DNA of 64,000 bases from Thermoanaerobaculia bacterium (GTDB lineage Bacteria; Acidobacteriota; Thermoanaerobaculia; UBA5066). The first letter of the stretch is position 1, and every line of letters starts with the position of its first letter. Below are positions 40,881 to 64,000 of the stretch, piece by piece. The translations under genes and the position numbers were made by a program. The notes beneath the pieces are model-generated. The model saw nothing but the letters and a program-made list of their open reading frames with translations. It ran no database searches and was not told where the DNA came from. The stretch covers positions 2,304,001 through 2,368,000 of the forward strand of contig CAVRAY010000001.1 of NCBI GenBank assembly GCA_963719225.1, written 5' to 3'.

Positions 40881-43800
40881 ATGATGCGATCCCTGTTCGG
40901 GCGGCGACGTCCCGTGGAGGAAGTGCCTCTCCGGGGCGAGATCCTGGGCCTCGAGAGCCTCGAGGAGCGCGCGAGGACGCTGGCCGGTATCTTCACGCTG
41001 GCGCGAGACTCCCGGGCGGACAGGCACGACGTCCGAAAGCGGCTGGACGCGAATCTCCGCGTCCTTCGCGAGGCCTACCGGGTCCTGGCCGGCGACGTCC
41101 GTCGGGGTGACGCCGTCGATCCCGCCGCCGAGTGGCTCCTCGACAACTTTCACCTCGTCGAATCCGAAGCGCGGGCGGTACGTCACGACCTCCCTTCGAG
41201 GTACTACCAGAAGCTCCCGAAGCTCGCCGCGCGCGAGCTCTCGGGCCGGGCCCGCATCCACGCGATGGCGCTGGAGCTCATCCGGCACGGCGACGGACGG
41301 CTCGACGCGGAGCGGCTCAACCGCTTCGTCCTCGCTTACCAGACGGTCGCGCCGCTGACGATCGGCGAGCTCTGGGCGTGGCCCAGCATGCTCAAGCTCG
41401 CGCTCCTGGAGAACCTGCGGATCCTGGCCGCGGGGATCCTGTCGGGGCGAGCCGCAAGGCGGGAGGCGGACGCCGCGCTCGAAAGGCTGGCCGGCGGCGG
41501 CCCGCCCGAGCCGCTTCCCGACCCTCTTCACAGCGCATTCGTCGCGCAGCTGCGGCACCGGATGCACGAAGCCGATCCACGCGTCTCGTCGCTTCATGCG
41601 CGGATGGAGGAAGCATTTCCCGAGGGCGGCCCGACGTCCGAGGACGCCGTCCGAGCCGAGCACCAGCGTCAGGCCACCGACCAGGCCTCGACGGGCAACA
41701 CGATCACGAGCCTGAGGCTCTGCGCCACGCTCGACTGGAGCCGCTTCGTGGAGCGGGTCAGCCTGGTGGAGCAGATCCTGCGCCGCGATCCGGCGGGCGT
41801 CTATACGCGCATGGATTTCCAGAGCCGGGACCGTTACCGCCAGGCCGTGGAGGACCTCGCCGAGCCCACGGGCGAGGCTCAGGTGCGTGTCGCCCTGCGC
41901 GCCGTGGAGAGCGCACGCCAGGCGGCGGAGAAAAAGGGAATCGGCGAGAGAGCCGCCCACGTGGGTCACCACCTGATCGGCCCGGGTCGGGTCGGCCTGG
42001 AGATCGACGTGGCATACACGCCGCGGCTCGGCCAGCGCCTCCGCCGGTTCGCCTTCGCCCACGCGACGGCGGCGTACCTCGGCGGCGTCGGCCTCCTGAC
42101 CGGCCTCGTCGTCTACGCGGCGATGAAGTACGTGGGAGCCTCCGGGGCTCCGCAGTTGGCGATCGCCGCGGCGCTTCTCGCGACGATCCCCGGGAGCGAG
42201 CTCGCGGTTCTCATCGTTCAGCGTCTCGTCGCCGCGTTCGTGCCGCCGCGGCGGCTGGCCCGCGTCGACCTCATCGGGGGCGTTCCCGAGAGCGCCCGCA
42301 CGATGGTGGTCGTGCCGGCGCTCTTCGGAGGCGTGAAGGGCGTCGAGGCTCTGCTGGAGCACCTCGAGGTGCAGGCCCTCGGCAACCTCGATCCGCACAT
42401 CCACTTCGCGATCCTCGGCGACTTCAAGGACGCGCCCGCCCAGACCATGGAGGGCGACGCGGAGATCCTGGCGGCCGCCACCGCCGGGATCGAGGACCTC
42501 AACCGGCGCCACGCGACCGAGGCTAAAGACCGCTTCTTCCTGTTCCACCGGGAGCGCCGGTGGAACGCGAAAGAGGGCGTGTTCATGGGCTGGGAGAGAA
42601 AGCGGGGCAAGCTCGAGGAGCTGAACAGACTGCTCCGCGACGCGGGCGACACCGGCTTCATCGTGCGTCAGGGGGAGCTTTCGATCCTGCCGTCCGTCCG
42701 CTACGTCCTCACGCTCGACGCGGACTCGCGGCTTCCGAGAGGCGCCGCGCACACCCTGATCGGGATCCTCTCCCACCCGCTGAACAGACCCGTCTTCGAT
42801 CCGTCGGTGGGACGGGTGACGGAGGGATACGGAATCCTCCAGCCACGAGTCAGCGTCACGCTCGCGAGCGCCGCCGGGTCGCTCTTCGCGCGGGTCTATG
42901 CCGGCCACACGGGAGTCGATCCGTACACGACGGCCGTCTCCGATACCTATCAGGATCTCTTCGGCGAGGGCGTCTTCACGGGCAAGGGGCTCTACGACGT
43001 GGACGCCTTTCGCGCGGCCGTGGACGGGCGCGTCCCCGAGAACGCGCTCCTCTCGCACGACCTCTTCGAGGGCCTGCACGCGAGGACCGGCCTCGTCTCC
43101 GACGTGGAGGTGGTGGACGACTATCCCGCGAACCTCCTTGCGCACGCGCGGCGCCAGCACCGCTGGGTGCGCGGCGACTGGCAGATCCTGGCCTGGCTCC
43201 TGCCGATGGTCCCGACTCCGAGGGGCTTCGCGAAGAACCGCCTGCCGCTCATCAGCCAGTGGAAGATCCTGGACAACCTCCGGCGGAGCCTCGTCGCTCC
43301 TTCCCTTCTCGCTCTCTTCGCTGCCGCCTGGACGGTCCTGCCCGGGAACCCGCTCGCCTGGACACTCGCCGGTCTCGCGGTCGTTTCGTTCCCGCTCGTC
43401 ACGTCGCTCCTCCACCTGCTGAAGAGGCCGCCCGCGTACGAGCCGGCCCGGGTCCACCTGCACGGGCTTCTCGAGGAGCTGAGCACGGCTTCCGCGCAGG
43501 CACTCCTGACGCTCGTCTTCCTCCCCTACCACGCATGGGAGATGGTGCATGCCATCGCCCTGACGCTCGTGAGGCTCGTCATCACGCAGCGCCGCCTGCT
43601 GGACTGGGAGACCGCCGCGGCGCAGGCGGCGCGGGCCGCGTCGCGCGAAGGAATCCGCCCATTCCTGGCGGAGATGGCGGCGAGCCCGATTGCCGCGGCC
43701 GTTCTCGTGGCTCTCACCGCTGTGGCGCGTCCCGGCGCTCTTCCCCTAGCTCTGCCTTTTGCCGTTCTCTGGGCGATCGCGCCCTTCCTCGCCTTTTGGC

Positions 43801-46800
43801 TGAGTCATCCGGTCCCGCCGCGGCGGCGCGAGCTGTCCCCCGCGGATCGCGAGCTCCTCCTCGCGGTCGCCCGGAAGACCTGGAACTACTTCGAGACGCT
43901 GATCGGCCCCGAAGGCCACGGCCTTCCTCCCGACAATCTCCAGGAGGAGCCCGCCCGCGTCGTGGCGCACCGGACCTCGCCCACCAACATCGGCATGGGC
44001 CTTCTCTCGACGCTCGCGGCTCACGATCTGGGTTTCCTGCCGGCGGACGCGATGCTCGAGAGGCTCGAGGAGACTCTGACGACCGTCGAAGGGCTGGAGC
44101 GACACGAGGGGCATCTCCTGAACTGGTACGACACGCGGAATCTCTCGGCGCTCCTTCCGCGCTACGTCTCCACGGTGGACAGCGGCAATCTCGCCGGGGC
44201 GCTGCTCGCGCTGGCCGAAGGATGCCGGCGGCTGGCCGCCTCGCAACCGCCGCTTGCCGCGCGCCTCCTCGACCTCGCCCTGCGCGCCGCGTCTTTCGCC
44301 GACGGAATGGACTTCGCGTTCCTCTACGACCGCGAGCGCCAGCTGTTCTCGATCGGCTACCGGCTGGCCGACTCCGGGGGCCCCGGCCGGCTGGACAGCT
44401 CGTACTACGACCTCCTCGCCTCGGAGGCGCGGATCGCGAGCTTCTTCGCCATCGCCAAGGGGGACGTCGCGCAGAGTCACTGGTTCCACCTCGGGCGGCT
44501 CGTGGTGAGCGTGGACGGCGTCCCGACGCTCGTATCGTGGAGCGCGTCGATGTTCGAGTACCTGATGCCGCTCCTCCTGATGAGGACGTATCCCGGGACG
44601 CTCCTCGACCAGACATATCGCATGGCCGTTCGCAGGCAGCGCCAGTACGCGCGCGACCGTGGCGTGCCCTGGGGCATCTCCGAGTCGGCGTTCAACGTCG
44701 TGGACCGGCTCGGGAACTACCAGTACAAGGCCTTCGGCGTTCCGGGTCTCGGGCTGAAGCGCGGGCTGGCCGACGAGCTCGTGGTCGCGCCCTACGCGAC
44801 CGCGTTGGCCGCGATGGTGGATCCGGCGGAAGCTGCGCGAAACCTGAAGCGCCTCGCGGCCGCGGGGGCCGAGGGGGCGTTGGGCTTTTACGACGCCGTC
44901 GATTACACGCCGCGCAGGCCGGAGGACGCCGCCTCGCCTGCTCCGGCGCGCGGTGTCGGGGCAAGCGAAGGCGTGATCGTGAGAACGTACTTGGCGAACC
45001 ACCAGGGGATGACTCTCGTCGCCCTCGCGAACGTCCTTCTCGGCGACGTCATGGTGGACCGGTTTCACGCGGATCCCAGGATCCAGGCGACCGAGCTCCT
45101 CCTGCAGGAGAGGGTGCCGCGCGAGGCTCCCGTCATCCAGCCGCGTCCCGCGGAGGAAACCCGCGTGGTTCCCACGGTCGCTCGCGCCCCGCGCCGCCTC
45201 CGCTCGCCCCACACGCCGTACCCGCGCGCGCAGATCCTGTCGAACGGCGCCTATGTCGCGATCGTGACGAACGCTGGCGGAGGAGCGAGCTTCTGCCGGG
45301 ACCGGGCCGTCACGCGGTGGCGCGAGGACCCGACGCGCGACCCGGGCAGTCAGTTCATCTATCTGCGTGACGTCCGCGGCGGCGCGGTCTGGTCCGCCGG
45401 CTATCAGCCCGTCGGCGTGGAGCCGGAGAGCTATCTCGTGGAGCTCCTCCCCGAGAAGGCCGTCATCCAGCGACGCGATCACGGCATCGAGACGCGCCTG
45501 GAGGTCGCGGTCTCGCCCGAGGACGACGCCGAGGTCCGGCGGGTCTCCGTGACGAACCGGAGCGACTGGCCGCGCGAAATCGAGCTGACGAGCTACGTCG
45601 AGATCGCGCTCGGATCCATCTCCGAGGACGTCGCGCATCCCGCCTTCGGGAAGCTCTTCGTCGAGACCGAGTGGGTGCCGGAGAGTACCGCCCTCCTCGC
45701 GCGGCGCCGCGCGCGAGGCCCGCACGACCCGGCTTTCTATGCCTTTCACGTCCTGTCCATCGACGGACGGATGCAGGCTCCCGTCGAGTGGGAGACGGAC
45801 CGCATGCGATTTCTGGGTCGCGGGCGCGGCCCCGACGACCCGGTCGCTCTCGACGGGCGGGCGCTCTCGGGCACCACGGGCGCCGTGCTCGACCCGATCC
45901 TCAGCCTGAGGACGCGGCTGCGCCTCGCGCCCGGCGCCTTCGCCCGGCTCTCCCTCGCGACCGGCGTCGCCGCGGACGAGATCGCGGCGCGCGCGCTCGC
46001 GCAGAAGTATCGCGACCCCGGCGTCGCCGCCCGCACGTTTGCCCTCGCCTACACGCACGCGCAGGTCTCGATCCGGCACCTGGGCATCTCCGCCGAGGAG
46101 GCCCAGCTCTTCGAGCGCCTCGGCTCCCGTGTCTTTTTCTCCGACGCGTCGCTGCGCGCCGAACGGGACCTGCTGGAAAAGAGCACCCTGGGACAAGCGG
46201 GCCTCTGGGGACACGGCATCTCGGGCGATCTCCCCATCGTCCTGGTCCGCGTGACCGAGCCGGACGACCTGCCGCTCGTGCGTCACGTCCTGATGGCGCA
46301 GGAGCTCTGGCGCCTCAAGGGGCTGAAGGCGGACGCCGTGATCCTGAACGAGCATCCCGCCAGCTATCGCGACGAGATGCACGAGCAGCTCGTCGAGCTC
46401 GTCGAGGGCGGCGCGTGGGGCGGATGGCAGGGGAAGCCCGGAGGCATCTTCCTTCTCCGCGGCGATGCGATGCCGGACGCGGAGCGGATTCTCCTCAATA
46501 CGGTCGCCCGCACGGTTCTCTCCGGAGAACGCGGGGAGCTGGAGGAACAGCTCGACCGCCACGAGCCGGAGCCCGTGTTTCCTGTCACGGCCCGGCAGGC
46601 CGCCGAGCCGGCGGATGTCGAAGAGCCGGAGGCGCCGGTCGAGCCTCCGCCTCTCGTCATGGAGAACGGGCTCGGCGGCTTCACGCGCGACGGCGGCGAA
46701 TACGTGGTCGTCCTCGAGGGCGAACGCGAGACTCCGCTCCCGTGGGTCAGCGTGCTCGCGAACCCGGGGTTCGGAACCATCGTCACGAGCTCGGGCGCGG

Positions 46801-49132
46801 CCCACACCTGGTGCGAGAACAGCCGTGAGAACCGCCTCACACCGTTCGCGAACGATCCCGTCACCGACCCGACCGCGGAAGCGATCTTCATGCGCGACGA
46901 GGAAGGCGGCGCCGCCTGGGGAGCCACGCCGGGGCCCCTGCAAGCGGACGTCACGCTCCCCGCGGTGGGCGGTACGCCACGCGCCCGGCGTGACGCGCTG
47001 GCAGAGCGCCGGGCGCGGCATCGCGCAGGAGCTGGCGGTCTTCGTGTCCCGGAACGAGCCGGTCAAGCTGTCCCTTCTGACCGTCACGAACCGCTCGAAC
47101 CGGCCTCGCCGGCTCAGCCTCTTCGCATACAACGAGTGGTCGCTCGGACCCCCGAAACCGGGAGTGGCGCGCTCGTGGTGACGGAGCGCGACCCGGACAG
47201 GGCGCGGTCTTCGCGCGCAATCCGTACAGCGAGGACTCAGCGGCCGCGTCGCGTTCGCGGGCGCCAGCGAACGCCTCTTCTCGGCCACCGGCGACCGCCG
47301 GGAGTTCCTGGGCCGCAACGGCTCGCTCCAACGTGCGGCCGCGTTCATGCGCACGCGGCTCTCGGGCCGCTTCGGCGCGGGGCTCGATCCCTGCGCGGCC
47401 CTGCAAGTGGCGTCGACCTCCTGCCGGGCGAGACGCGGCGCGTCGTGTTTCTGCTCGGCCAGGGCCGTGACCTCGTCGAGACGCGCGCGCTCTTCCGGCG
47501 CTACTCGGGAGCGGCCGGCCTCGCCGCGGCCGAAGCCGAGCTCGAAGTGGTGGAGGCGTTCTGGGAGGAGATGCTCGGCGCCGTGCGGGTCTCGACCCCC
47601 GACGACTCCTTCGACCTGCTCGTGAACAGGTGGCTCCTCTACCAGGACCTGGCCTGCCGGCTCTGGGCGCGATCCGGCTATTACCAGCCGAGCGGCGCGT
47701 ACGGTTTCCGCGACCAGCTCCAGGACGTCCTGGCGCTGATGTTCGACGCGACCCGACCTGACCCGCGAGCATCTCCTGCGCGCGGCGGCGCGCCAGTTCA
47801 CGGAGGGCGACGTGCAGCACTGGTGGGACGCGCTCGACCGGCCGCGGAATTCGAACGCGATGCTCGGACGATCTCCTGTGGCTGCCCGTACGCGCTGGCC
47901 CAGTACCTCGAAAGCGACCGGCGACGTCTCTGTCCTCGACGAACGGGTGACGTACCTCGAGGCGCCTGCCGTTCCAGCCGGGAGAGGCGGAGGCCTACGG
48001 GCTGCCGACGGTCTCGACGGAAGAGGGCCCGCTCTTCGAGCACGGTCTCAAGGCCATCGACCGCGCGCTGACGCCGGCTCCCACGGCCTGCCGCTCATCG
48101 GCAGCGGCGACTGGAACGACGGCTACAACCGCGTCGGGCCCCCGGGCCGCGGGGAGAGCGTCTTCGTCGGATGGTTCCTGCACGCGGTCCTGGGCGCCTT
48201 CGCTCCGCTTTGCGACGAGCGAGGCGACGCGCCGCGTGCCGGCGTTACCGCGCCGAGCGCAAGCGCCTCGGGCGCGATGCTCGAGCAGAGCTGGGACGGC
48301 GAGTGGTATCGGCGCGCCTACTTCGACGACGGCACGCCGCTGGGATCCGCCCAGAACGACGAGGGCGGCATCGACTCGGTCGCGCAGACCTGGGCCGTGC
48401 TCTCGGGCGCCGCGCCGAAGAAGCGGGCCGAGCGCGCGATGGATGCGGTGCGCGCCCAGCTCGTGAGACGCGCGTCGCAGGTCATCCTTCTCCTCTCGCC
48501 GCCCTTCGACCGCACGGCCCTCGACCCCGGCTACATCAAGGGTTACCTCCCGGGAGTCCGCGAGAACGGCGGACAGTACACGCACGCGGCCCAGTGGGTC
48601 GTCCTGGCCCTCGCGCGCCTCGGGTAGCGGCGACGAGGCGGCCGAGCTCTTCCACATGCTCAACCCGATCAACCACGCACGCACCGCCGCGGAGGTCGAG
48701 CAATACAAGACCGAGCCCTACGCCGTGGCGGGGGACGTCTACGACCACCCCGCGCACCGCGGTCGCGGGGGATGGACCTGGTACACCGGCTCGGCCGGCT
48801 GGATGTATCGCGTCGGCCTGGAGGGGATTCTCGGGCTCACGCGCCGCGGCGCCACTTCGCGGTGGACCCGTGCATCCCGTCGTCGTGGCCCGGCTTCTCC
48901 GATCGAATGGCGCTTCGGAAAGACCCGATACACGATCGAAGTCGAGAACCCGAACCGTCGCGGCGGCGGCGTCCTGAGCGCCGAGCTCGACGGAGTGGCG
49001 GCGGACTCCGCCGCGATCCCCCTCGTGGACGACGGCGGAGTGCACAGGGTGCGGATCGTCCTGGGGGCGCGGAAGGCGGTCTCCGGCGCCGGGCTGACGC
49101 CGGTTCCGGAAACGACGTCCCCTGCCCGGTGA
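40881..49132 (+). CDS. ndvB: cyclic beta-1,2-glucan synthase/phosphorylase (NdvB/ChvB-like, GT84 + GH94); many frameshifts after ~46940
   Basis: [91 protein letters not shown]. Confidence 0.88.
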
Positions 49133-49174
49133 GCGGCGGCGGGATTTTTTCGCCTACGCCCGGGGTCAGCCGAC

Positions 49175-49669
49175 CTACGCAACCACCTCCGCAAGCACCT
49201 CGCCGAGCGTCACGCGCTGCCCCTCGGCGACGAACAGCTCCGTCACCGTCCCCTCGTGCGGCGCGGCAATCGGGTTCTCCATCTTCATTGCCTCGACGAG
49301 GAGGAGGACCTGACCGGCGCTCACGTAGGCGCCGCGCTCGACGAAGAGGCGCGTGATCACGCCGGGGATCGGGGCCTTCACGCGACCGTCGCCGCTCGCG
49401 GGCCTCGTGCCGGCGCTGTCGAGGTCGCGCACCTCGAGCGGGAAGTAGCCGGCCGCGGACCGCACCCACCTGAGCCCGGTGTCGAAGAGCGCCTCCACGG
49501 GACGGCCCTCGACGACGACGACGCCGAACGAACCCGAGGCGTGCTGGCGCGGCGAGAGCAGGACCTGCTCGCCGTCGACGGTCACGAAGGGCTCGTCCGA
49601 TGCGATCTGGCGCTGATCGAGCTCGACCGTGTAGGTCCGTTCTTCGAGCGTCACCGCGATCCGTCTCAT
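49175..49669 (-). CDS. biotin carboxyl carrier protein
   Basis: VKAPIPG...VEAMKMEN, ATG 49669. Confidence 0.9.
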   Translation of the reverse strand: MRRIAVTLEERTYTVELDQRQIASDEPFVTVDGEQVLLSPRQHASGSFGVVVVEGRPVEALFDTGLRWVRSAAGYFPLEVRDLDSAGTRPASGDGRVKAPIPGVITRLFVERGAYVSAGQVLLLVEAMKMENPIAAPHEGTVTELFVAEGQRVTLGEVLAEVVA

Positions 49670-49685
49670 GTCGTTGCGCCTTTTC

Positions 49686-51175
49686 TCACGGGACCCGGCG
49701 GCTCTCGCGGAACCATCCGGTGAGCGCTTCCTCGGGCAGCTCGGGTTTGAAGTCGAGGTGGTGACGGACGTACGCGAGCGCCGCGGCGACGGCGAGGTCG
49801 CGGCGGTGGCGCTCGTCCCCGTCTCCCCGGAGCAAAGCGGGCGAGAAGAACGAAGAGTCGTATTCGCCGGCGCGAAAGCGGGGATCACGCACGAGCCTGA
49901 CGTGCAGGGACACGTCGTTCCCCACGCCGACGAACGTCATCTCGACGAGCGCCCGCGTGAGCCTGCGGACCGCGATCTCCCGCGTCTCGCCGCGGACCGC
50001 GACCGTCGCAAGCCCCGGATCGTAGGCTTCGGGCACGTCGGCGCCGGGCACGAGATGCGTGTCGGTGCGGACGTTCGGCCCTCCCGGGAGACGCATCCAC
50101 TGCACGCGCCCGGGTGAAGGCAGGAACCCGTGCCACGGGTCCTGGGCGTTGATGCGGCACTGGATGGAATGGCCGCGCGTCGCCGCCGCCTCCGTCAGCG
50201 ACGCATCGAGGAGCTCGCCCGCGGCCAGACGGAGCTGCCAGGAGACGAGATCGATCCCGGTCAGCATCTCGGTCACCACGTGCTCACGCTGGAGCCGGGG
50301 TTTGATCTCGGTGAAGAGGAACCGTCCGTCCGGCAGCCCGAGAAACTCGACGGTGGAGGCGCCGCGACAACCGAACAGCCGCGTGAGCCGCCCGGCCTTC
50401 TCGTGGAGCTCGCGCCGGGCCGCGGAACCGAGCCACGGGGACGGGGACTCGTCGACCAGCTTCTGGTTTCCGCGCTGGACCGAGCCCTCGCGCTCTCCCA
50501 GCACGGCGATCTCTCCGGCTTCGTCGGCGAGGACCTGGACGCCAAGGACATGGACGCGGCGGAAATAGCGCTCGAGGAAGACCCGGCGGTTGCCGTAGTT
50601 GAGCTCGGTCTGCTCCTGGGCACCTCTGAACGCCTCGACGAACTGCTCCGGCTTGCGCACGAGGCGCATGCCCCGGCCGCGCCCGCCACGGGTCGACTTC
50701 ACGAGGAGCGGGTAGCCGAAGCGGGCCGCGTCCTCCTCCGCCGCCTTCTGCTGCCCCTCGTCGTAGGACCTCGGCGAATGCTCGGGCGTCTCGAAGCCCG
50801 CTGCCTCTGCCGAGCGCATCGCGCCGACCTTGTCCGAGACCGCCGAGAGCGCCGTCGAATCGGGCCCGACGAATCGGATTCCCGCCGTCTCGCAGAGCCT
50901 GACGAAACGCGAGTTCTCGGCAAAGTAGCCGTAGCCGGGGTGGACGGCGTCGCAGCCGCGCGCCTTCGCGATCGCGAGCAGTTGCTCCGCGTCGCGGTAG
51001 CCGAGCGGGCCGGTGAGCTCGGCACACCCGTCGGCGAGCCGGACGGCAAGGGCCTCCCGCTCGAGAGGCTCGTACACGGCAACCGACGAGAGTCCGAGGT
51101 CGCGGCAGGTCCGGAGGACGCGCACGGCGACTTCGCCCCGGTTGGCCACGAGAACGCGCCGGAACGCGCCCGAGC

Positions 51176-51179
<4 letters not shown>
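49686..51179 (-). CDS. accC: biotin carboxylase subunit
   Basis: [53 protein letters not shown]. Confidence 0.85.
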
Positions 51180-52754
<1,575 letters not shown>

Positions 52755-53503
52755 GGTGGTCCTTTCCGAGGAGCGCCGACGACCGCGCGGCCAGCGTCAG
52801 GACGAAGCGGCCTCGAACGCTCCAGAGGCCCGAGAAAGGAATCTCGCCGGCGCCAATGCCGGCCGCGCAGAGGGCGTCGAAGCGGCGCCAGGCTTCCCTT
52901 CTGGGGCGGAGAAGCTCGTCCGCAGGCTCGATCGAGAGGCGGATCTCCACGCTTCTCGTGTCGACGGAGAGTCCGAGTGAAAGAGCCTTGAGAACCGACT
53001 CCTTCGCGCTCCAGATCGCGTTCGCGAGAAGGGGTTGCTCCTCAGGAGGGGACTCCTCCCACGCGGCGGCCTCGGCGGGCGTGAAAAAGACGCTCGACGA
53101 AAGCCCGGGAGCGCGGCTCGATCCACTCGACGTCGCCCCCGATCGCGGCTTTGCCCGTCGGCGCCGGGAGGAGCGCGCAGAACGCGGCGCCATGCGCGTG
53201 GCTGACCGAGAGGCAGACCGGCAGCCGCTCTCCCGAGACGAGACGAACGAACGGAGCACCCGAGCCCTCGGTGGCGATCTCGAACGTCTCGGGCCCAAGC
53301 GCGCGACCGAGGATGTCGGATGCGGAGTCGCTCACGAGGCGCTTTGCGGTGAAGCGGCCGAGGAGCCACTCGTCCCGCCTCTTCGGCACGTGAAAGGTCG
53401 CGAGGCGCGCGTTCTCGAACGGCGTGAGCCAGGCAACGGGTGGATTGCAGTCCGGCAGCCCGGCCAAAGTCTCGAAGGCGGTCCGGAGCGACGTCTGCGT
53501 CAT
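52755..53503 (-). CDS. 4'-phosphopantetheinyl transferase (Sfp-like); frameshifted, 3' end uncertain
   Basis: [44 protein letters not shown]. Confidence 0.85.
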
Positions 53504-56500
53504 GGATTGCCTCGAGGGTCACGCCCTCCTGGAACGCCACGGTGCGATAGCCGTTCACCTCCACGAAGACGCGCCCGTCCTCGTCCACGACCGCGCGTCG
53601 AAGGAAGACCCGGCGTCTCTCGCCGTGACGAGCGCGAAGAGCCGCCGGCCTCCGCTGTCCTCCTCGCCGCGGGAGACGCGAATGACATCCACGGAGGCCG
53701 GCAGCGCAGGCGCTGCCGCCTGAAAGCTCCCAGACCCCGCCGTCTGGAAGCAGAGCTCGAGCAGACGGGGCGCCGCGAGTGACGCGGCGGACGAGGGCGC
53801 CGCATTCGGGGGCAGATCGGGCGCCATGGATCCGAGAGCCTCGTCGCCGTTCAGCGAGACCCCTTCCAGAACCCGATAGGCCGGCCCGTGGAAGTAAACG
53901 CGGTAAACCGCGTCTCGGGTGATCGGCAGACCGCTCGGTCCGGGAGGCGTGAACGCAACCGCCGGAGGCTCGGGCACGGTTCCGAGGACGACGCGGGCGC
54001 CGGAAGTGGACGAGCCTCACTGCAGCTGAGCTCCGGCTTCGGTCGCACCTCCGAGCGGAGGAGCGTGTCGAAGACGACTCGCCGGCTCGCGGGATGCGCC
54101 GCGGCGCTAAGGTAGAAGGGTCTGCGGCTTCATGCGGTAGAACTTGAACGGGCCTCTCGAAGACGACATCTTCGTGCGCGCGAAGCCGTCCCCCGACGCG
54201 AGCGGTCGCGACCTCGGCGAAGGCTTCGGCGCCCATCACGCCGGCAGCAGCGGCGTCCCCTCGATCTGGTGATCGTAGAGGAACGGCTGAACGTTCGGGT
54301 CGAGCGTCGTCTCGACTTCCAGACCCGCCGTAGAGCGTCGCCGCCTTGACCGCGCCGATCATGCCGAGCGATGCGTACGCCGCCCAGTCGGCTGACCTTC
54401 GGCAGGTCGAGCCCGCCCGTCCCGTCCGAGTTCCTTGCAGGACGCCGAGCCGCTCGCCGACGACGATCTCGCCCCGGAAGCCGCCCGCGACCAGCTCGCG
54501 CCGCACGGTCGGGATACCGGACTCGGGCGGCAGCATGTCGATGCCCGCCATCTCCATGATCCGCGGGATCGAGCCGCGCGTCGCCATGCCGATGCCGCCC
54601 CACGCCGTCCAGTCGATGGCGATGCCGCGTGTTTCTGGTCGCCAGTGGCGTAGAGCTGCTGGTGATCTTGCACAGCAGGTCGTTGGCGGCGCTGTAATCG
54701 GTCTGCCCGCTGTTGCCAAAGCGCCCGGCGACCGAGCTAAAGGCGACCGTCGCGCCGATGCGGCAGATCCCCTTCGCCGCTGCAGCAGGCTGAAGAAGCC
54801 GTCCGCCTTGATGTCGAAGACGAGATTGAACTGCGCCGCGTCCTTATCGCCCAGATTGCGGCTGATTTCGACGCCGCCCGCGTGGACCAGCACGTCGATC
54901 CGCCCGTACGGCTGGCGGATTTCCTCGACGACCGCGCTCGACCGCTGCGCCGTCGAGCAGGTTGACGCTGCGATAGTAGGCTGTTCCGCCCGCCGCCTGA
55001 CCGCCTCGACTGCCCGCAGCGCCGCTTCCTCGCGCTCAATCGCCATGATCTGCTTGTCGATCTGCGCAGGAGTCGGGCTTTCGCCCGCCGCTTTGCGCTC
55101 CTCGATCAGCGCCGCCTTGAGCGCATCCTTGTCGCTGCGGAAAAGCGCGATCTTCGGATCGTTCGCGTCGGGCAGCGCTGACCAGATCGAGCAGGTAGAA
55201 AATGCCGCCGCTCGCTGCCGCCAGATCGCCGACGATGGCGCTGGTGATGCCGCCCGCCGCCCCGGTGACGAGGAACACGGTATCTTTGCCGAGCGTCAGG
55301 CCGGGCGCGCCGTCGGCGGCGGGCTGCTCCACCAGCGTGACGCTGTAGCGATTGCCGTCGTAGTAGCCGACCTCGACCACGCCCGGATCGCTCAGCGTTT
55401 CGGCGATCAGCGCGTCCGCCGGATCAGCCGTCTTGCGGCTGACTTCAAAATCGACCGCTTTGACGAGCGCATCGCCGCGCTCGCGCTTGTAGGCTTTGGC
55501 GAAGCCGGTCACTGCCCCGCCGAGCGGCGCGCTGCGCGCCGTCCGCCGTAGCCATGCAGTCCGCCCAGCCGCGTCGCGGCGATCAGGAAAGTCCCTGCCG
55601 TGCTGATCGCGTCGTAGAGGACGCGCATCGTGATCGAGAGGTTCTTGACGCGCTGGCGGTTGAGTTCGCGCCACAGCTCCAGATCCAGCTTCGAGCGCCG
55701 GTTCCACGTCGAGCGCGGGCAGCCAGTAGACGCCCTGGATCGCGCCTTCGCTCAGCCACGCCTTGACCTGCGCTTCCAGCGTCGGCGCTGTTGGGCGCAT
55801 TCTTCGACCGTCAAGCGCGGTCACGCCGCGTTTTTGCAGCCGGTTGATCAGCGCCTTGACCGACGCCGCCCATGTCGAGCGCGACGATCACGCGGCTGTT
55901 TTCATCGAGCGTCACGCCGTCGGCTTGCACCAGTCGAGCGGCGGGCGCAGCGATGGCACAGGCACGCGGCGCGGGATGCGATCCGCCGCTTCGAGCGAAG
56001 CACTCCGGACGTACGGCGCAGGACGCGACGCCGGCGCAGGCGTCGGCGCGCTTCGGGCTCCGGCGGCTGCGCCAGGTCGGGCGCGACTCGCGCACGAAGT
56101 CGATCACTTTCGCCAGCGTCGGGTAGTCGCGCAGCTTCAGGTCGTCGCGGCGCGGAATGTCGAACGCCTGCCGGATCGCCGCGAACGTCTCCGCCTGCTT
56201 GACCGTATCGATCCCCAGGTCGGCTTCCATGTCGAGATCGAGTTCCAGCATCTCCACCGGGTAGCCGGTCTGCTCGGCGACAATCTCCAGCACTTTCGCC
56301 GTCACTGGCCGCCGCCCGCGCATGCGGGCTGGCGCTTCGGGCGGCGCTTCGGTGATCGCCGAGGCTCCGTCGCGTTCGCGGCGACGGTGCAGGCGGACGC
56401 TATCCGGTTCGGGCGGCTGCGCCAGATCGGGGCGCGAAGTCGCGCACAAAGTCGATCACCTTCGCCAGCGTCGGGTAGTCGCGCAGCTTCATGTCGTCGC

Positions 56501-59500
56501 GGCGCGGGATGTCGAACGCCTGCCGAATCGCCGCGAACGTCTCCGCCTGCTTGACCGTGTCGATCCCCAGTCGGCTTCCATGTCGAGATCGAGTTCGAGC
56601 ATCTCCACCGGATAGCCCGTCTGCGCGGCGACGATTGCCAGCACCGTTCGCGACCAGCGGTCGGTCCGCTGGCGGGCGCGGCTGGCGAGTCGGAACAGGC
56701 GGCTCGACGCGCTGCGGCACCTGCGAGACCGCTCAGGGATTCGGGCTCGACTTCCACCTTGACGCACTGGCACCGGCTGGGCTCGGCACGATCTCCGGCT
56801 TTCGGTCTTGGGACGGATGCGGCGGGTCTCCGGCGCGTGCGACCGCGCGAGCGCTGGACGGCGGCACCGGCAGCGGCGTTGGCGGCAAATGGCGTGCGCA
56901 CCGTCGGCCCGTGCCGGAGCGCCAGACGTTCGGCGCGGGGGCGCGCGGCGGAAAGCCCTGCTCCTTGACGCGCAGCACGCGCTTGACGACTTCGGTCTCG
57001 GCGCTGTCGTAGCCGCTGACGGCATCCAGCCAGTGCTGATAGAGCGGCGCGTTGTCGACGCGGTTCAAGCCGCCGGGGATGCGTCGGGTCAGCGTCATCG
57101 CGATCTGCGAGCCGAAGCCCGCCGCCAGATGCAGCACGTACTGCACCGGGTAGCGTCCGCCCCGGCTCAGGTTGAGCCTGCCGAGGTCGGGATCGACTTC
57201 CTTGAAGTTCGGCACAGGCGGGACAATGCCGTGTTCGAGGATTTTCACGGCGATCACGTCCTCGATGCCGACGCCCATCGGATGCCCGGTGAAGCCCTTG
57301 GTGTTGGCGATGATGATCTCGCTCGGCGGCGTCGCCGAAGGTCTGGCGCAGCGCGACGACCTCGGCCGCAGCGCTGCCGCCGCGCGCGGGCGTGAATGTC
57401 TCGTGCGACATGAAGACCATCTGCGGCGCCATCGCCGCGCGATGCAGGCCGAAGCGCCGCTCCGCCGCCGTGACCAGGCTCTCCATCACCGGGGCGATGT
57501 GGTCAACGTCCAGGCGCGTGCCGTGATAGGCGCTGTTGCGCGTCTCGCTGCTCAGCACTTCGACGATTCCGCGCATCCCGCGCTCGCGCACCGCGTCTTC
57601 GCTCTCGACCACCAGCGCGCAGGCGCCCATGCCGAGGATCGTGCCGTGACGGCGGCGGTCGAACGGGAGCGCCGCTTCGTCGACGCGGTCGTCGGTGGCG
57701 GCTGCGCCCGTCGCCAGAAAGCCCGCGCCGACCCATTCCATCAGGTGTTCGCTGGTCACGTCGTCCGCGCCGATCACGATCACGCGGCGGCAGCGCCCGG
57801 CGCGAATCCAGTCCTCGGCCATGCCGATCGCCTGAGTCGTGCTGGCGCAGGCGGCGTTGACATGGGTGTTCGGGCCGCGCGCGCCGACATACTCGGCGAA
57901 CTGGCTGTGACCCATCGCCAGGATGCGGAAGAGGAAGCGGCGGTCAAATTCATACGGCTCGCGCTCCAGCTAATCGCGCAGGTCAGCCGTCGCGGCGGCT
58001 GATCTCGCTCAGCGTGTCGGCGTCGGTGGTGTAGCGGCGCAGGTCTTCGAGCAGCTCAAGCTGGTCGAGCCGATTTTGATAGGTGTAGTAGCGCCTGAAT
58101 TCGTCGGCGAAGCGGTCGCCGCCGGGGAAGGCGCTGGCGAAGATCACGCCGGTTTCGTCGCGCAGGCTCGGCGGCAGCATCCAGCGATCCGGCAGGTGCT
58201 TGCCGGTCGAGGTGGCGCGGTAGGTCTGCACCAGCGGAATGCCCGCCTCGCGCAGCGCATCCAGCCCGGCAGCCATCGCCAACTGGGTCGTGATGTCGAG
58301 CGCCTCGATCAGTTTTTCCGGCACGCCGTATTCTTCGTGCAGGTCAAACGAGCCAGGGCGCCCGGCCAGCTTGATCACCTCGTCGGGATCGTTGATGGTC
58401 TCGAAGCTGCCGCTGCCGTCCTCGGATTTGACCAGCCGCGTGACGTGCTTGGCGAGCATCCGCTTGCGGAAGCGCTCCGGGATCAGGTCGATGAACTGCT
58501 CGCCGCGCAGGATGCGCTGCGGCGTTGTCGGGGTCCATCACCGGCTTTTCGGCGCCCGGCAGACCCAGACCCGTCCCGCTGATGATGATCGAGCCGGCGG
58601 GCGGATCGTTGCGGTCGAACGGGCGCGGCGCGACTGCCTGCTGAAGCGTCTGTACCAGCGCGCTGAGCAGTCTCCAGCGAATAGCGGCGCTGAGCCGTTG
58701 GGTGAGGGCATGGTTCACGTCAGTCCTTCTGGTTGAGTGAATGGCGACAGGTGGCGGCGCAGACGGCTGTCTGCGCGCTCGCGGATTCGCTGTAGTAGCC
58801 GGCTGCGTACAGGCCGCACAGCGCCTGATTAAACGAGGGAAGCTCGCCCTGCTTGGGATGGCAGGTGAACAGCGAGAGCACGTCGGTCTGCCCGGCGAAC
58901 ACGTCGTCGGCAAAGCCCTTGAGCGCCCGCTTGGGCCCGACTTCGACGAAGGTGCGCACGCCGTTGGCATAGAGCGTTTCCAGCCCCTTGACCCACTGCA
59001 CGGGCGAGGCGATCTGCCGTTGCAAATGTCCTTGATCGCTTCGACGCTCGTCGGGTAAAGCTCGCCGGTCACGTTGGCGACCAGCGGCAGCTTCGGCGGC
59101 GCGATGTGCAGCCGATCCAGCACGCGGCGCAGCGGCTCGCTGGCCGGAGCGACGATCCGGGTGTGGAAGGCGTGGCTGACCGGTACCTGCACGACCTTGT
59201 AGCCCTTCGCCTCGAACAGCGCGATCGCCTGCTGCACCGCATCGCTGTCGCCGCCGATCACGCACTGGCTGCGGCTGTTGATGTTCGCCGGGACAACGTA
59301 GCCATCGATCTCCTTGAGCGTCGCCTCGACCACGTCAATCGGCGCGATCACCGCCGCCATCTGGCCGTTGTCGTCCATGCTGACCTTGCTCATCTCGCTG
59401 CCGCGCGCGGCGGCGGCTTCGAGCGCGTCGGCAAACGGCATGATCCCGGCGGCGATCAGCGCGGCATATTCGCCGAGCGAGTGCCCCATGACCATATCCG

Positions 59501-61607
59501 GCTTGAAGCCGTAGGCGTCCAGCAGGCGGTAGATCGCGATGTCGAGCGTCAGCATGGCGGGCTGGGTGATCGCCGTCTGCATCAGATCGAATTCGGCCTG
59601 CATCAGCGCGGACGGATCGTCGGCATCGACGAAGATATACGAGGTCAGCGGCTTGCCGAGGATCGGCGTCATGACGCGCGTCGGCTTCCGCGAACACCTC
59701 GGCGACCAGCGGCGAGACGCTTCGCCAGATCGCGCCCCATGTTGACATACTGGCTGCCCTGACCGGGGAACAGGAAGGCGACCTTGCCGGGCTTGGCCGC
59801 TGCCCCGGAAAATCCCCTGCGGCTGCATCGCCTTCCATGCCTGCGGGTTGTCGAAGCTCATGGCTTTGCTGGCGGTTTGCAGCCGCGCCAGCAGTTCGTC
59901 GTGATCGCCGAAGTCGATCACGAGGCGTTCGCTGCGCGCGCAGATCGAGCGGGTTCGGGAAGGCGACCGGCGGCGTCCAGCCGGACTGCACGCGCTTGAG
60001 CGCGGCATCGAGTCTTCTCTTGCAGTTCTTTCGGCGTGGCCGCGCCGAGCGCGAGAGATGCCGCGCAGCGGCGCAGGACGGCGGGGTCGAGACTTGGCCG
60101 TTGGATGGCGATCGCCGTTCGTCGCTGGCGCTGTCGCCGTTGACCGACACGCCAGCGTACGACTTGCTCTTTTGCGTCAGCGTGCCGGGGACATGTTCCT
60201 CCATCACGAGGTGGAAGTTCGTGCCGCCGAAGCCGTAGGCGCTCACGCCCGCAGCGGCGCGGCGTGCCGTCGGGCTTCGCCCATTCGCGCGCTTCGTGAT
60301 TCAGGTAGAAAGGGCTGTGCGCGAAGTCGATATTCGGGTTCGGGCGCTCGGAGTTGAGCGTCGGCGGCAGAATTTTGTGGTAGACGGCCAGCGTCGCCTT
60401 CAGCAAGCCCGCCGCGCCCGCGCCGGCTTTCAGGTGGCCGATGTTGCTCTTGACCGAGCCGAGCGCGATGCTGTGCCGCGCGGCGCCGTGCTGCCGAAAA
60501 TCTTCGCTCAGGCTCTCGACTTCGACCACATCGCCGACTCTGTGTGCTGGTGCCGTGCGCCTCGACCAGCGTCGCCGTCGCCGGGTCAAGCCCGGCGTTT
60601 TCCCAGGCGCGCTGGATGGCGAACTGCTGCCCGACCGGGTTCGGCGCGGTGATGCCCTTGCCGCTGCCCGTCGCTCGAGCCGCCGACGCCGCGAATGACC
60701 GCGTAGATCTTGTCGCCGTCGCGCTCGGCATCGTCCAGCCGCTTGAGCAGGAACGCCGCCGCAGCCTTCGCCCATGACAAAGCCGTCGGCGCCGTCGCCA
60801 AACGGGCGGCTGCCGGTCGCGCTCAGCGCGCCGATCTTGCAGAACTTGACGAAGCGTCGAAGCGCCCATGTTGCGATCCACGCCGCCGGTGATCACGGCA
60901 TCGACACTGATGCTCGATCAGCAGCTCGACGGCGGCATTGACGGCGGCGAAGCTGGAGGCGCAGGCGGCGTCGGTGATGAAGTTGGGTCCGCGCAGGTCG
61001 AGCACGTTGGCGACGCGCCCGGAGACGATGTTCGCCAGCTCGCCGGGCATCGAGTCTTCGGTGACGGGCGGCAGCGTGTCGTCGATCACGCCGTGCCAGT
61101 GGTCGCGGATGGCGCTGCGCACGTCCTGCAGGCAGCGCCTGAAATTCGGGCGACGGCTTCGAGCGCACGCGCGTATTCGGGGAACGAAACGCGCAGATGC
61201 GTCTGATAGTGCAGCTCGCCGCCCATCGCCGTGCCCAGAATGACCGCCGTCCGCTCGGTGTTCAGCGGTCGTTCGGGATAGCCGTAATCGGCCAGCGCTT
61301 CGGCGGCAATCGTCACCGCCCACTGCTGCCCCTGATCCATGGCGGCGGCGACTCGCGGCGGGATGCGAAAGCGCTTCCAGTCGAACTCGAAGCCGCGCAC
61401 CCAGCCGCCGATCTTGCTGTAGGTCTTGTCCGGGCGGCTCGGGTCGGGTCATAGTAGTCGGCCGTGCTCCAGCGCTCCGGCGGCACTTCGGTGATGCTGT
61501 AGCGTTTGTTGAAGATATTGTTCCAGAAAGCGGACGCGTCGGGCGCGTCCGGGAGAATGGCGCCCAGCCCCACAATCGCGATGGCTCGTTCGGCGTCTTT
61601 CGCTCAT
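53500..61607 (-). CDS. type I polyketide/fatty-acid synthase KS-AT-KS-ACP-ACP-KR-DH; heavily frameshifted as assembled
   Basis: KS1 [35 protein letters not shown]2 [23 protein letters not shown], two ACPs [47 protein letters not shown]. Confidence 0.85.
56090..56650 (-). repeat. two ~200-bp direct repeats encoding tandem ACP domains
   Basis: [44 protein letters not shown](L/M)[16 protein letters not shown] occurs twice, ~350 bp apart. Confidence 0.9.
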
Positions 61608-61617
61608 GCTCTTCCCT

Positions 61618-63251
61618 CTAGCCGCCGCGAACGCCTCGACGAGCCCTCTGGCGACCACGTCCATATCGGCGATCAAGCCGGTCTGCGCCTGATAGAGCGC
61701 CGGCGAGGTTGAGTGCCGACGCGAGATCGGGTCGGTTTGCCCCGCGCCGATCGTCCAGCGCAGCCCGTCGAGGCGACCTTGAGGCCGCTTCGCGGGCGAA
61801 AATGCGGGCCAGCGCCTGGCGCGGCGGATATCCAGCGGGATCGCTTCGGTCGGTTTCTGACGACGCGCTCGGCGAAGACCGCCGCCCCTTCGGCATAGGC
61901 GATCAGCTCGCCCAGCCGGAACAGGACGTGCTGGCTGCGCGTCAGCCGGTCGAGCCGGCAGCGCTCGAAGAACGCGCCAGCGCGCGCATCGCCAGCGCCG
62001 CGAAGCGGAGCGCCCGTTGTCCGGCTCGAGCTGCCGCTCTGCGCTCGAGCCGCGCCGCCCAGTCGTTGTAATATGCGCCGCGCGTCTTCAGGTGGAGCTG
62101 CCAGCGGTCGCGCGCAATCGTCCACTCCATGATCTCGGACGTGCCTTCGTAGATCGTCGTGATGCGCACGTCGCGCTTGATCTTCTCGACCATGTATTCT
62201 TTGGTGTAGCCGTAGCCGCCGTGACGCCTGAATGGCGTCTTCGGCCGCTTTGTTGCCGGCCTCGGTCGCCAGATATTTGGCGACTGCGCCTTCGGTCGCC
62301 AGATCCTGTTCGCCGCCGTCGAGCCGCTCCGCCACCCATTCGATGTAGGTGCGCGCCGCTTCCAGCCGCGCGGCATTGGGCACGATCAGCTTATGGGTGT
62401 AGCCCTGTTTCTTGCTGAGGGGCCCGCCTGCCTGCACGCGCTCCTGCGAGTAGCGGATCGCGCGGCGCAGCGCTTCCCAGCCCGCGCCCAGACCGAACGC
62501 GCCGACCATCAGGCGGGTGTAGCCGAAGACGGCCTGCGCCTGCGCCAGACCCTGCCCTTCGACGCAGCCAACCAGCCGATCCGGCGTGACGAACACATCT
62601 TCGAGAAACAGCGCCGCCGTGTTGCTGGCGCGGATGCCATGCTTGTCTTCCGGCTTGCCCTGCGTGAATCCGGGCTGTCCCGCTCGACGATGAACCACGA
62701 CGGACCGCCCGGCGCGAGCGCCAGAATCGTGTACAGGTCGGCGACGCCGCCGTTGCTGATCCACTGCTTGCGCCCGGTGATCTTGTACCCGGTCAGCTGC
62801 CCGTCTTCGAGCACGGGGACGGCTTTGGTCGTCAGCGACGCCAGATCGCTGCCAGCCTGAGGCTCGGTCGCGCCGTAGGCGACCAGCAGCGACTCGTCGG
62901 CGAGCCGCCTCATCCAGTCGACTTCTGCTCCGGCGTCGCGCCGACGGTGATCGGGTCGGTTCCGAGGAACGTCGCCAGCACGCCGGTCGCAATGCCGAGG
63001 TCGATGGCGGCCATGACCTCGGAGACGCGATAAATGTCATGCGCTCCGCCGCCGAGCCCTCCGGCCTCTTCAGGAATAAAGAGGAGATGGAGACCGATCT
63101 GCGACGGGTCGTACAGATCTTTCAGGGTTTTCGCCGGGAAGGCATCTTCTTGATCGAGCTTCAAAAGGAAGGCAGGCGTGAGCTCCCGTTCCGCGTAATC
63201 GCGCACCGTCGACAGGAGCATCTCGAGCACGTCGGTATCGAGCCGCGGCAT
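61618..63251 (-). CDS. acyl-CoA dehydrogenase family protein with C-terminal extension; multiple frameshifts
   Basis: [69 protein letters not shown]. Confidence 0.88.
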
Positions 63252-63416
63252 ACCAAACTCCGCTACGTCTGGAAGTCCAGCAGACGTCGAAGAGAGGATA
63301 GGGTCCAGCCGAGACGCAAACTTGATGCATATGCACTGTTCAATCCCGCATAAACGCGCACGGTTGCAGTGGATCGCGAGGGCGCGAGGGCTAAGATCCG
63401 GCGCTGGAGGTGAATC

Positions 63417-63902
63417 TTGAAAACCACTCGTCACGGGGCTGTCCTGGCCGCAGCGCTCCTCCTCATGGCATCTCCCGCGTTCACGCAAGAGCATCCGGCG
63501 GGGCACGAGCATCCCGCGAAGGGTGAGCACCCGAAATCCGAGAAGGCGAAGACCGTCACGACCGCCGACCTCGACAAGGCCATCAAGGCGAGGATCGCCG
63601 AAAAGACGAAGTCCGACGGCGGGGTCTTCAAGGTGGAGGACAAGGTTCTGAACAGGACCTGGGACCTCACGCTGGTCAAGGTTCACACCGACAAGCTGAC
63701 GCCGCTCTCGGCCGACACCTACTTCGCGTGCACGGACTTCAAGGCCAAGGACGGCACGCTGGTGGACGTCGACTTCTACTTGAAGAACGAGTCCGGGAAG
63801 CTCGTGATCACCGACACGACGGTTCACAAGATCAACGGCAAGGCCCGCTTCAACTATGTCGAGAAGAACGGCGTGTGGGTCCGGGAAGAGGTCAAGGGCT
63901 AG
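63417..63902 (+). CDS. secreted protein with N-terminal EHP repeats
   Basis: GGAGG RBS, TTG start, signal peptide, [23 protein letters not shown]. Confidence 0.75.
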
Positions 63903-63936
63903 AACGGGCGCCTGGCCGAAAGGGGCAGGCGGGCCG

Positions 63937-64000
63937 TCAGCGCCCCCTGAGCGACTGGACGAACTCGCGGTTGACGAGCGGTCTCTCGGCGCCGGTGTCG
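63937..64000 (-). CDS. 3' end of a convergent gene entering from outside the window
   Basis: Open frame ...[20 protein letters not shown]. Too short to assign a function. Confidence 0.35.

Follow-up and report, generated by a model that had tools for sequence, protein, structure and literature searches.

Threonine at the phosphopantetheine site of a Type R lipid synthase and its partner phosphopantetheinyl transferase

Acyl carrier proteins (ACPs) and peptidyl carrier proteins are defined by attachment of the 4'-phosphopantetheine arm to a conserved Ser, and Ser-to-Thr exchange at this site is used as a dead control. The operon discussed here encodes carrier domains with Thr in place of this Ser. 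It is found on the minus strand of a 64,000-nucleotide stretch (the window) of a Thermoanaerobaculia bacterium (Acidobacteriota; assembly GCA_963719225.1, contig CAVRAY010000001.1, positions 2,304,001 to 2,368,000) and encodes, in this order, an acyl-CoA dehydrogenase, an iterative synthase, a phosphopantetheinyl transferase (PPTase), a carboxyltransferase, a biotin carboxylase and a biotin carrier. The synthase is a Type R lipid synthase as defined by Shulse & Allen (2011, PMC3098273), a class that was therefore already catalogued; the new part is the Thr at its carrier sites.

The carrier sites in the window

The two ACP domains and the codons in question are the following.

56556..56558, minus strand: Thr codon ACG at the phosphopantetheine site of ACP1, read directly
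56204..56206, minus strand: Thr codon ACG at the phosphopantetheine site of ACP2, read directly; aligns with the Ser of solved ACPs
56436..56650, minus strand: ACP1; lacks 1 nt near 56570, upstream of its motif
56087..56305, minus strand: ACP2, intact, a 73-aa PP-binding domain

Upon re-reading, both motifs have Thr at the Ser position in translation, as claimed in the initial annotation, which had missed the deletion in ACP1. It had also argued that the differing neighbouring Asp codons (GAT and GAC) make a miscall unlikely. The codons do differ, but the two domains are 93% identical in DNA and thus provide weak independent evidence on their own; it is the homologs that settle the residue. 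ACP2 matches the PP-binding profile (PF00550) with 33.3 bits, above the cut-off of 20.8, and its sequence does not contain a single Ser. The profile match and helical-bundle fold that characterize this family are found in ACP2 and in the model of a homolog, respectively, whereas the conserved Ser at the start of helix II is replaced by Thr in both copies and in the family. A search of the window with a Ser-ACP profile revealed no further ACP, which agrees with the annotated absence of a Ser-type ACP from the operon. Elsewhere, however, the genome does contain several stand-alone Ser ACPs, including AcpP in a fatty-acid synthesis (FAS) II cluster.

Threonine as the state of the family

An ACP query gave 1,487 protein matches. 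Among the best 120, Thr is present in 525 of 528 domain hits, the others being one Lys, one Pro and one uncovered site. In order not to select homologs on the Thr itself, queries with the second ketosynthase domain (KS2) were used as well. Among the best 120 of 4,281 KS2-selected matches, Thr occupies all 375 covered sites (375 of 380 domain hits, five being truncated), and in 80 named genome loci, also KS2-selected, all 225 covered sites (225 of 231, six truncated). With an Elusimicrobiota KS2 query, the best 120 of 2,339 matches display GIDTVKQ in 417 of 418 cases; in the remaining one the pattern fell on a flanking motif. Ser was not found at the site in any of the ACP-, KS2- or Elusimicrobiota-selected sets. 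As these sets overlap slightly, they were pooled as distinct domain sequences, giving 1,100 Thr, one Lys and one Pro, that is, Thr in 1,100 of 1,102 Type R domains. The outcome that would have spoken against the initial annotation, homologs mostly carrying Ser, is thus not what is seen.

At 252 sites in 75 loci, Thr is encoded by ACG (134), ACC (92), ACT (16) and ACA (10), and 27 loci mix codons among their own ACP copies. Synonymous change is thus free at this position, whereas the one-step change to Ser is unseen. Recoding of the Thr codon to Ser can be rejected, as the four codons occur across phyla.

Two further distinct domains with Ser were retrieved by a Ser-specific search and belong to a differently built synthase. 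The scan for the Ser form (GIDSVKQAE, TCN codons only) yielded 12 metagenome loci, some of them partial and none with the Type R layout; those long enough to read encode split synthases, for example KS-KS plus AT-ACP-KR-DH. Three of these sister systems (L084:3261-11301, L087:1-2964 and L093:3153-12299) have a gene for a pyridoxal phosphate-dependent class I/II aminotransferase between or beside the synthase genes and may form a sphingoid-like or amino lipid product. In two others (L091 and L092), a radical SAM gene takes the place of the aminotransferase.

Among the named carriers of Thr ACPs are Anaerolineae, Chloroflexia, several Acidobacteriota classes, Myxococcales, Binatia, Rhodothermales, Elusimicrobiota and Nonomuraea gerenzanensis. 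The KS2 patterns match about 1,800 stored stretches in species-representative genomes. N. gerenzanensis, a cultured actinomycete, has a complete operon with one Thr ACP (L180, NZ_LT559118, near 6.0 Mb); this 11.85-Mb record is labelled as a plasmid and has the size of a chromosome.

Phylogeny and structure of the carrier domains

A tree of 38 of the 77 Thr rows and 17 Ser rows (73 columns) places the Thr ACPs on one side of a branch with a support of 98/90, nested among Ser ACPs with AcpP-like rows as outgroup. This topology indicates a single origin from Ser. In alignments, the Thr of the GxDT motif is the only residue that coincides with the modified Ser of solved ACPs such as PigH and AcpP. 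The AF2 model of a homologous ACP, based on a 36-sequence alignment, has a pLDDT of 87 and resembles solved ACPs with a TM score of about 0.8-0.85; its Thr40 opens helix II. None of the columns in these 36 ACPs is a conserved Ser, the maximum being 17%.

The partner phosphopantetheinyl transferase

The PPTase gene was found directly after the synthase, where it had been annotated.

52774..53503, minus strand: Sfp-type PPTase of the Type R clade, with KRRDEW, SVSHA, GGDVE and WSAKES; one frameshift near 53100

Such a gene lies within 1.5 kb of the synthase in 43 of 54 loci. In the other 11 it is found further along the locus (three) or elsewhere in the genome (eight). Across genomes, Thr and this one PPTase clade, with its catalytic residues intact, occur together, as the initial annotation had proposed. 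In 251 Chloroflexota genomes, Thr ACPs are present in 10, and the clade PPTase (scoring 195 bits or more, against 94.5 for the next match) in the same 10 and in none of the 241 others. A further 300 genomes from the phylum of the window include 16 with Thr ACPs; 15 of these, and none of the remaining 284, have the clade PPTase (173 bits or more, against 101 for the next match). Combined, it is found in 25 of 26 Thr-ACP genomes versus 0 of 525 others (G115 and G247 are counted in the negative denominators only). Four genomes (G066, G070, G081 and G591, the last in 3 contigs) have kept the PPTase away from the operon.

The protein has the features of Sfp-type (family II) PPTases, a pseudodimeric fold of about 240 aa with GxDxE and WxxKExxxK motifs; these motifs are conserved in 74-77 of 76-77 sequences. 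The model of a homolog (pLDDT 92) adopts the Sfp fold, with the Sfp-PCP complex 4MRT as best match (E 1e-12, TM 0.65-0.71; 17% identity), and the Mg- and CoA-binding motifs are retained. Five members of the clade (among the loci, L114, L119, L163 and L164) have an Asp-Arg instead of the Ser-His motif, for example MTDR, and the four with sequences at hand are encoded at a distance from the synthase locus.

In the helix bearing the catalytic Lys and Glu, the positions preceding the motif Trp are distinctive. Phe at W-4 is seen in 0 of 77 clade members versus 11 of 18 other PPTases, W-3 is Thr or Asn in 69 of 77 and W-2 is Ala or Leu in 71 of 77, residues at W-3 and W-2 being small; a D-T-R motif follows. 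Sfp is described as binding carrier helix II by means of a hydrophobic patch in its C-terminal half (PMC8857579). The small residues at W-4, W-3 and W-2 are therefore a candidate pocket for the extra methyl group of Thr. A Ser at W+1 was considered as a compensating methyl swap and rejected, as the PPT domain of yeast FAS also reads WSAKE.

The synthase and its neighbours

The remaining features of the operon are listed below (KS, ketosynthase; AT, acyltransferase; KR, ketoreductase; DH, dehydratase).

53500..61607, minus strand: Type R iterative synthase of about 2,650 aa with the domains KS1-AT-KS2-ACP2-KR-DH; about 42-44 frameshifts and 3 in-frame stops
60961..60963, minus strand: catalytic Cys of KS1 (DAAC); His motifs near 60563 and 60445
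59478..59480, minus strand: catalytic Ser of AT (GHSLG); HAFH motif near 59170
57847..57849, minus strand: catalytic Cys of KS2 (NAAC); His motifs near 57408 and 57293
54694..54696, minus strand: catalytic Tyr of KR (DYSAAN; YxxxN)
54269..54271, minus strand: catalytic His of DH
61618..63251, minus strand: flavoprotein of the acyl-CoA dehydrogenase family (about 540 aa) with 7 frameshifts; Glu motif YEGTSE at 62154; candidate trans enoyl reductase
51180..52770, minus strand: carboxyltransferase subunit; 10 frameshifts
49686..51206, minus strand: biotin carboxylase, intact open reading frame
49175..49888, minus strand: open reading frame with biotin carboxyl carrier protein; AMKM at 49294; start probably near 49680

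All KS, AT, KR and DH motifs that had been annotated as retained are indeed readable in the window, as are those of the PPTase, and the synthase is 68-70% identical to intact homologs. Domain residues were scored over 77 full-length homologs, counting the covered ones: the catalytic residues of KS1, AT and KS2 (Cys-His-His) are kept in 76 of 76, those of KR and DH in 73 of 73. The tandem ACPs number 1-6, as in working polyunsaturated fatty acid (PUFA) synthases.

An acyl-CoA dehydrogenase gene directly precedes the synthase in all 63 loci with room for it. Its best NCBIfam match is acryloyl-CoA reductase, far below the cut-off. In 4 of 80 loci (L016, L022, L026 and L028), genes for both the alpha and beta subunits of electron transfer flavoprotein (ETF) lie directly upstream of the operon, which supports an ETF-linked reductase role of the dehydrogenase. 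In L017, fabH lies upstream of the dehydrogenase. Carboxylase genes follow downstream in 38 of 54 loci; in six loci (L070, L079, L081, L083, L180 and L184) a single fused biotin-dependent carboxylase of 1,830-1,890 aa replaces the three carboxylase genes. Stand-alone Ser ACPs are found in none of the 80 loci.

Condition and origin of the window copy

Frameshift-aware alignment gives about 60 breaks in total; the synthase has about 42-44 of them, the carboxyltransferase 10, the dehydrogenase 7 and the PPTase one. In-frame stops, by contrast, number only 3 over about 3,900 aligned codons. With many indels and few stops, uncorrected long-read error fits better than decay, and the frameshifts are probably read errors. 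A frame-switch proxy reaches 1.0-1.4 per kb at 46-64 kb, whereas 65 samples of the genome have a median of 0.21 and do not exceed 0.91.

The operon was found in none of the 40 relatives searched. It is part of a 15-kb island (window 49150-64000, to about C1:2368360), most likely acquired horizontally. Within it, the 53.5-63 kb block is atypical in its tetranucleotides (98-99th percentile). Its middle best matches Chloroflexota loci, and the parts near the PPTase and the 5' end best match Acidobacteriota loci; this block could alternatively be a partly mosaic consensus. An inserted island is more likely than a chimeric join of unrelated contigs, since both flanks are near neighbours in two congeners (G003, where they are about 0.8 kb apart, and G017). 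At the island site, the congeners have an unrelated short acyl-CoA dehydrogenase. Beside the island, a large gene on the plus strand (window 40881-49132), 77-87% conserved in the congeners and frameshifted at its 3' end here, resembles what we take to be a cyclic beta-1,2-glucan synthase/phosphorylase.

Host background

AcpP is present in 49 of 50 Type R hosts and an own AcpS scores over the cut-off in 43 of 51. As most hosts have AcpS, the clade PPTase is not needed for AcpP. FabZ is missing in 32 of 51 Type R hosts. In Anaerolineae (the class of G041), however, fabZ (TIGR01750) is over the cut-off in 0 of 171 genomes, with or without Type R (21 of 171 having it), while fabF is present in 165 of 171; in this class, FAS II seems to work with a dehydratase other than FabZ. 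The idea that Type R is the only fatty-acid synthase of its host was rejected, given the presence of AcpP and of FabF and an absence of FabZ that is independent of Type R.

Relation to known systems

The 2011 description of Type R places its clusters in Koribacter, Solibacter, Elusimicrobium minutum and Roseiflexus, and gives them one pfaA-like gene with the organization KS-MAT-(KS/CLF)-ACPn-KR, followed by a PPTase and often by acetyl-CoA carboxylase genes (PMC3098273). The window has this single pfaA homolog with the PPTase, carboxyltransferase, biotin carboxylase and biotin carrier genes downstream, and its KS2 is 82-83% identical to Roseiflexus sp. proteins and loci; kinship was compared through retrieved Ca. 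Solibacter and Elusimicrobium homologs rather than the five 2011 accessions. Roseiflexus, Ca. Solibacter and Elusimicrobium homologs have the same Thr; the main text of the 2011 paper does not use the words "threonine" or "serine". Other differences concern KS2, named a chain-length factor (CLF) there and carrying Cys-His-His here, and the DH domain and acyl-CoA dehydrogenase, which do not figure in that description. The window copy has two ACPs instead of the 3-6 described (PMC3098273); as homologs have 1-6, the earlier range reflects a small sample.

PfaA/PfaE omega-3 PUFA synthases share the tandem ACPs, the iterative megasynthase and the dedicated PPTase, and a full-length Type R homolog scores 1032 bits against TIGR02813, the cut-off being 1010. 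The PfaA-type ACPs met here read GIDSIKRVE, whereas Type R has Thr, and Type R has a second active KS between AT and the ACPs. PfaB, PfaC and the enoyl reductase PfaD are not among the recurring neighbours in the 80 loci. Type R thus lacks both the partners and the Ser ACPs that define Type A/B omega-3 PUFA synthases. In the open-licence PMC and bioRxiv literature, neither a natural Thr-linked phosphopantetheine nor a product of Type R was found.

Function of the threonine

The reading that best accounts for these data, to which we assign a probability of roughly three in four, is that the cognate Sfp-type PPTase transfers 4'-phosphopantetheine onto the Thr of Type R ACPs. It is built on comparative sequence evidence. 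The cluster PPTase would move the arm from CoA to the ACP Thr, and the biotin carboxylase system of the operon would supply malonyl-CoA. AT, which has a HAFH motif that we take to be of the malonyl type, would load malonyl on the Thr-linked arm. KS1 and KS2 would condense, KR and DH would act in cis and iteratively, and the adjacent acyl-CoA dehydrogenase, with ETF, would likely stand in for the enoyl reductase that the synthase lacks. A long-chain secondary lipid would be the product. It could also be imagined, with less certainty, that Thr hides these ACPs from the host AcpS, so that ACP and PPTase are insulated as a pair and pass together from phylum to phylum.

Several observations weigh against this reading. 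E. coli ACP(S36T) is reported to be neither modified nor acylated and not to complement acpP (PMC3340395, PMC13343975), and the S38T form of spinach ACP is likewise cited as non-functional (PMC9310384), which makes Thr a poor substrate for known PPTases. One Thr-ACP genome (G610, 270 contigs) has no match to the clade PPTase. Genes of one operon will co-occur through linkage alone, which accounts for much of the pattern, and related genomes do not count as independent cases. The ACP tree includes the Thr column itself among its few columns, and its bootstrap is unsettled. The presence of AcpP in nearly all hosts and of FabF in most Anaerolineae leaves both an essential role of the synthase and unavailability of a trans ACP without support. 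Finally, the window's own synthase copy cannot be read as an intact gene, and the case for Thr therefore rests on the intact homologs. The mutants have the same substitution at the same site, but they are inactive controls, whereas the Thr of Type R is a conserved natural state; the mutant data concern AcpS-type systems and not a co-evolved PPTase.

The same mutants would favour a different arrangement, in which the tandem ACPs remain apo and act as docking or scaffold modules, and intermediates ride on a trans Ser-ACP (AcpP or similar) activated by the cluster PPTase or AcpS. Such carriers are at hand, both as AcpP in nearly all hosts and as the stand-alone ACPs of the window's genome. We consider this unlikely, for an apo module could equally use Ala, Asp, Asn or Gly and makes no demand for Thr specifically, a tandem number resembling that of working PUFA synthases would be unexplained, free ACPs are absent from the loci, and with AcpS serving AcpP the clade PPTase would be left without another obvious substrate. 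Less probable still is another use of the Thr hydroxyl (direct O-acylation, regulatory phosphorylation or attachment of a different CoA-derived group), the acyl chains being processed as CoA thioesters. The hydroxyl is conserved with exclusion of Ser, and the partner belongs to the acyl-CoA dehydrogenase family, which usually acts on CoA esters; yet the PPTase has a normal Sfp fold with all catalytic residues, KS and AT have canonical sites, and a Claisen condensation requires a thioester carried by a long arm.

That the arm sits on another hydroxyl residue of the domain, namely the Thr of TGYP, the Tyr, or the Thr of YPTL, is very improbable. These residues are also highly conserved, but they are equally so in the Ser-type sister ACPs, the YPTL Thr precedes the final helix in the model as a structural capping position, and the alignment with solved ACPs singles out the GxDT Thr. 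Hardly any weight is left for the view that the Thr marks a sequencing error or a dead gene: the frameshifts and the absence of the island from all 40 relatives searched would suit it, and it may describe the state of the window copy, but as a source of the Thr it is refuted by intact homologs of 2,600-3,200 aa from several phyla, all with Thr and in four codons.

Significance

It is fairly likely that Type R represents the first natural Thr-linked phosphopantetheine, in a family whose members occur in Chloroflexota, Acidobacteriota, Elusimicrobiota, Myxococcota and Actinomycetota and would be served by a Thr-competent PPTase that AcpS could not replace. If so, the failure likely to be met in heterologous expression without the cognate PPTase would be explained; cultured hosts exist in Roseiflexus, Elusimicrobium posterum (WP_424244195) and N. 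gerenzanensis. The PPTase and its ACP would offer an orthogonal enzyme/tag pair with which proteins could be labelled and engineered pathways insulated. Tools that call Ser-less ACPs inactive would misjudge many clusters, and a natural family using Thr would change the Ser rule for carrier proteins.

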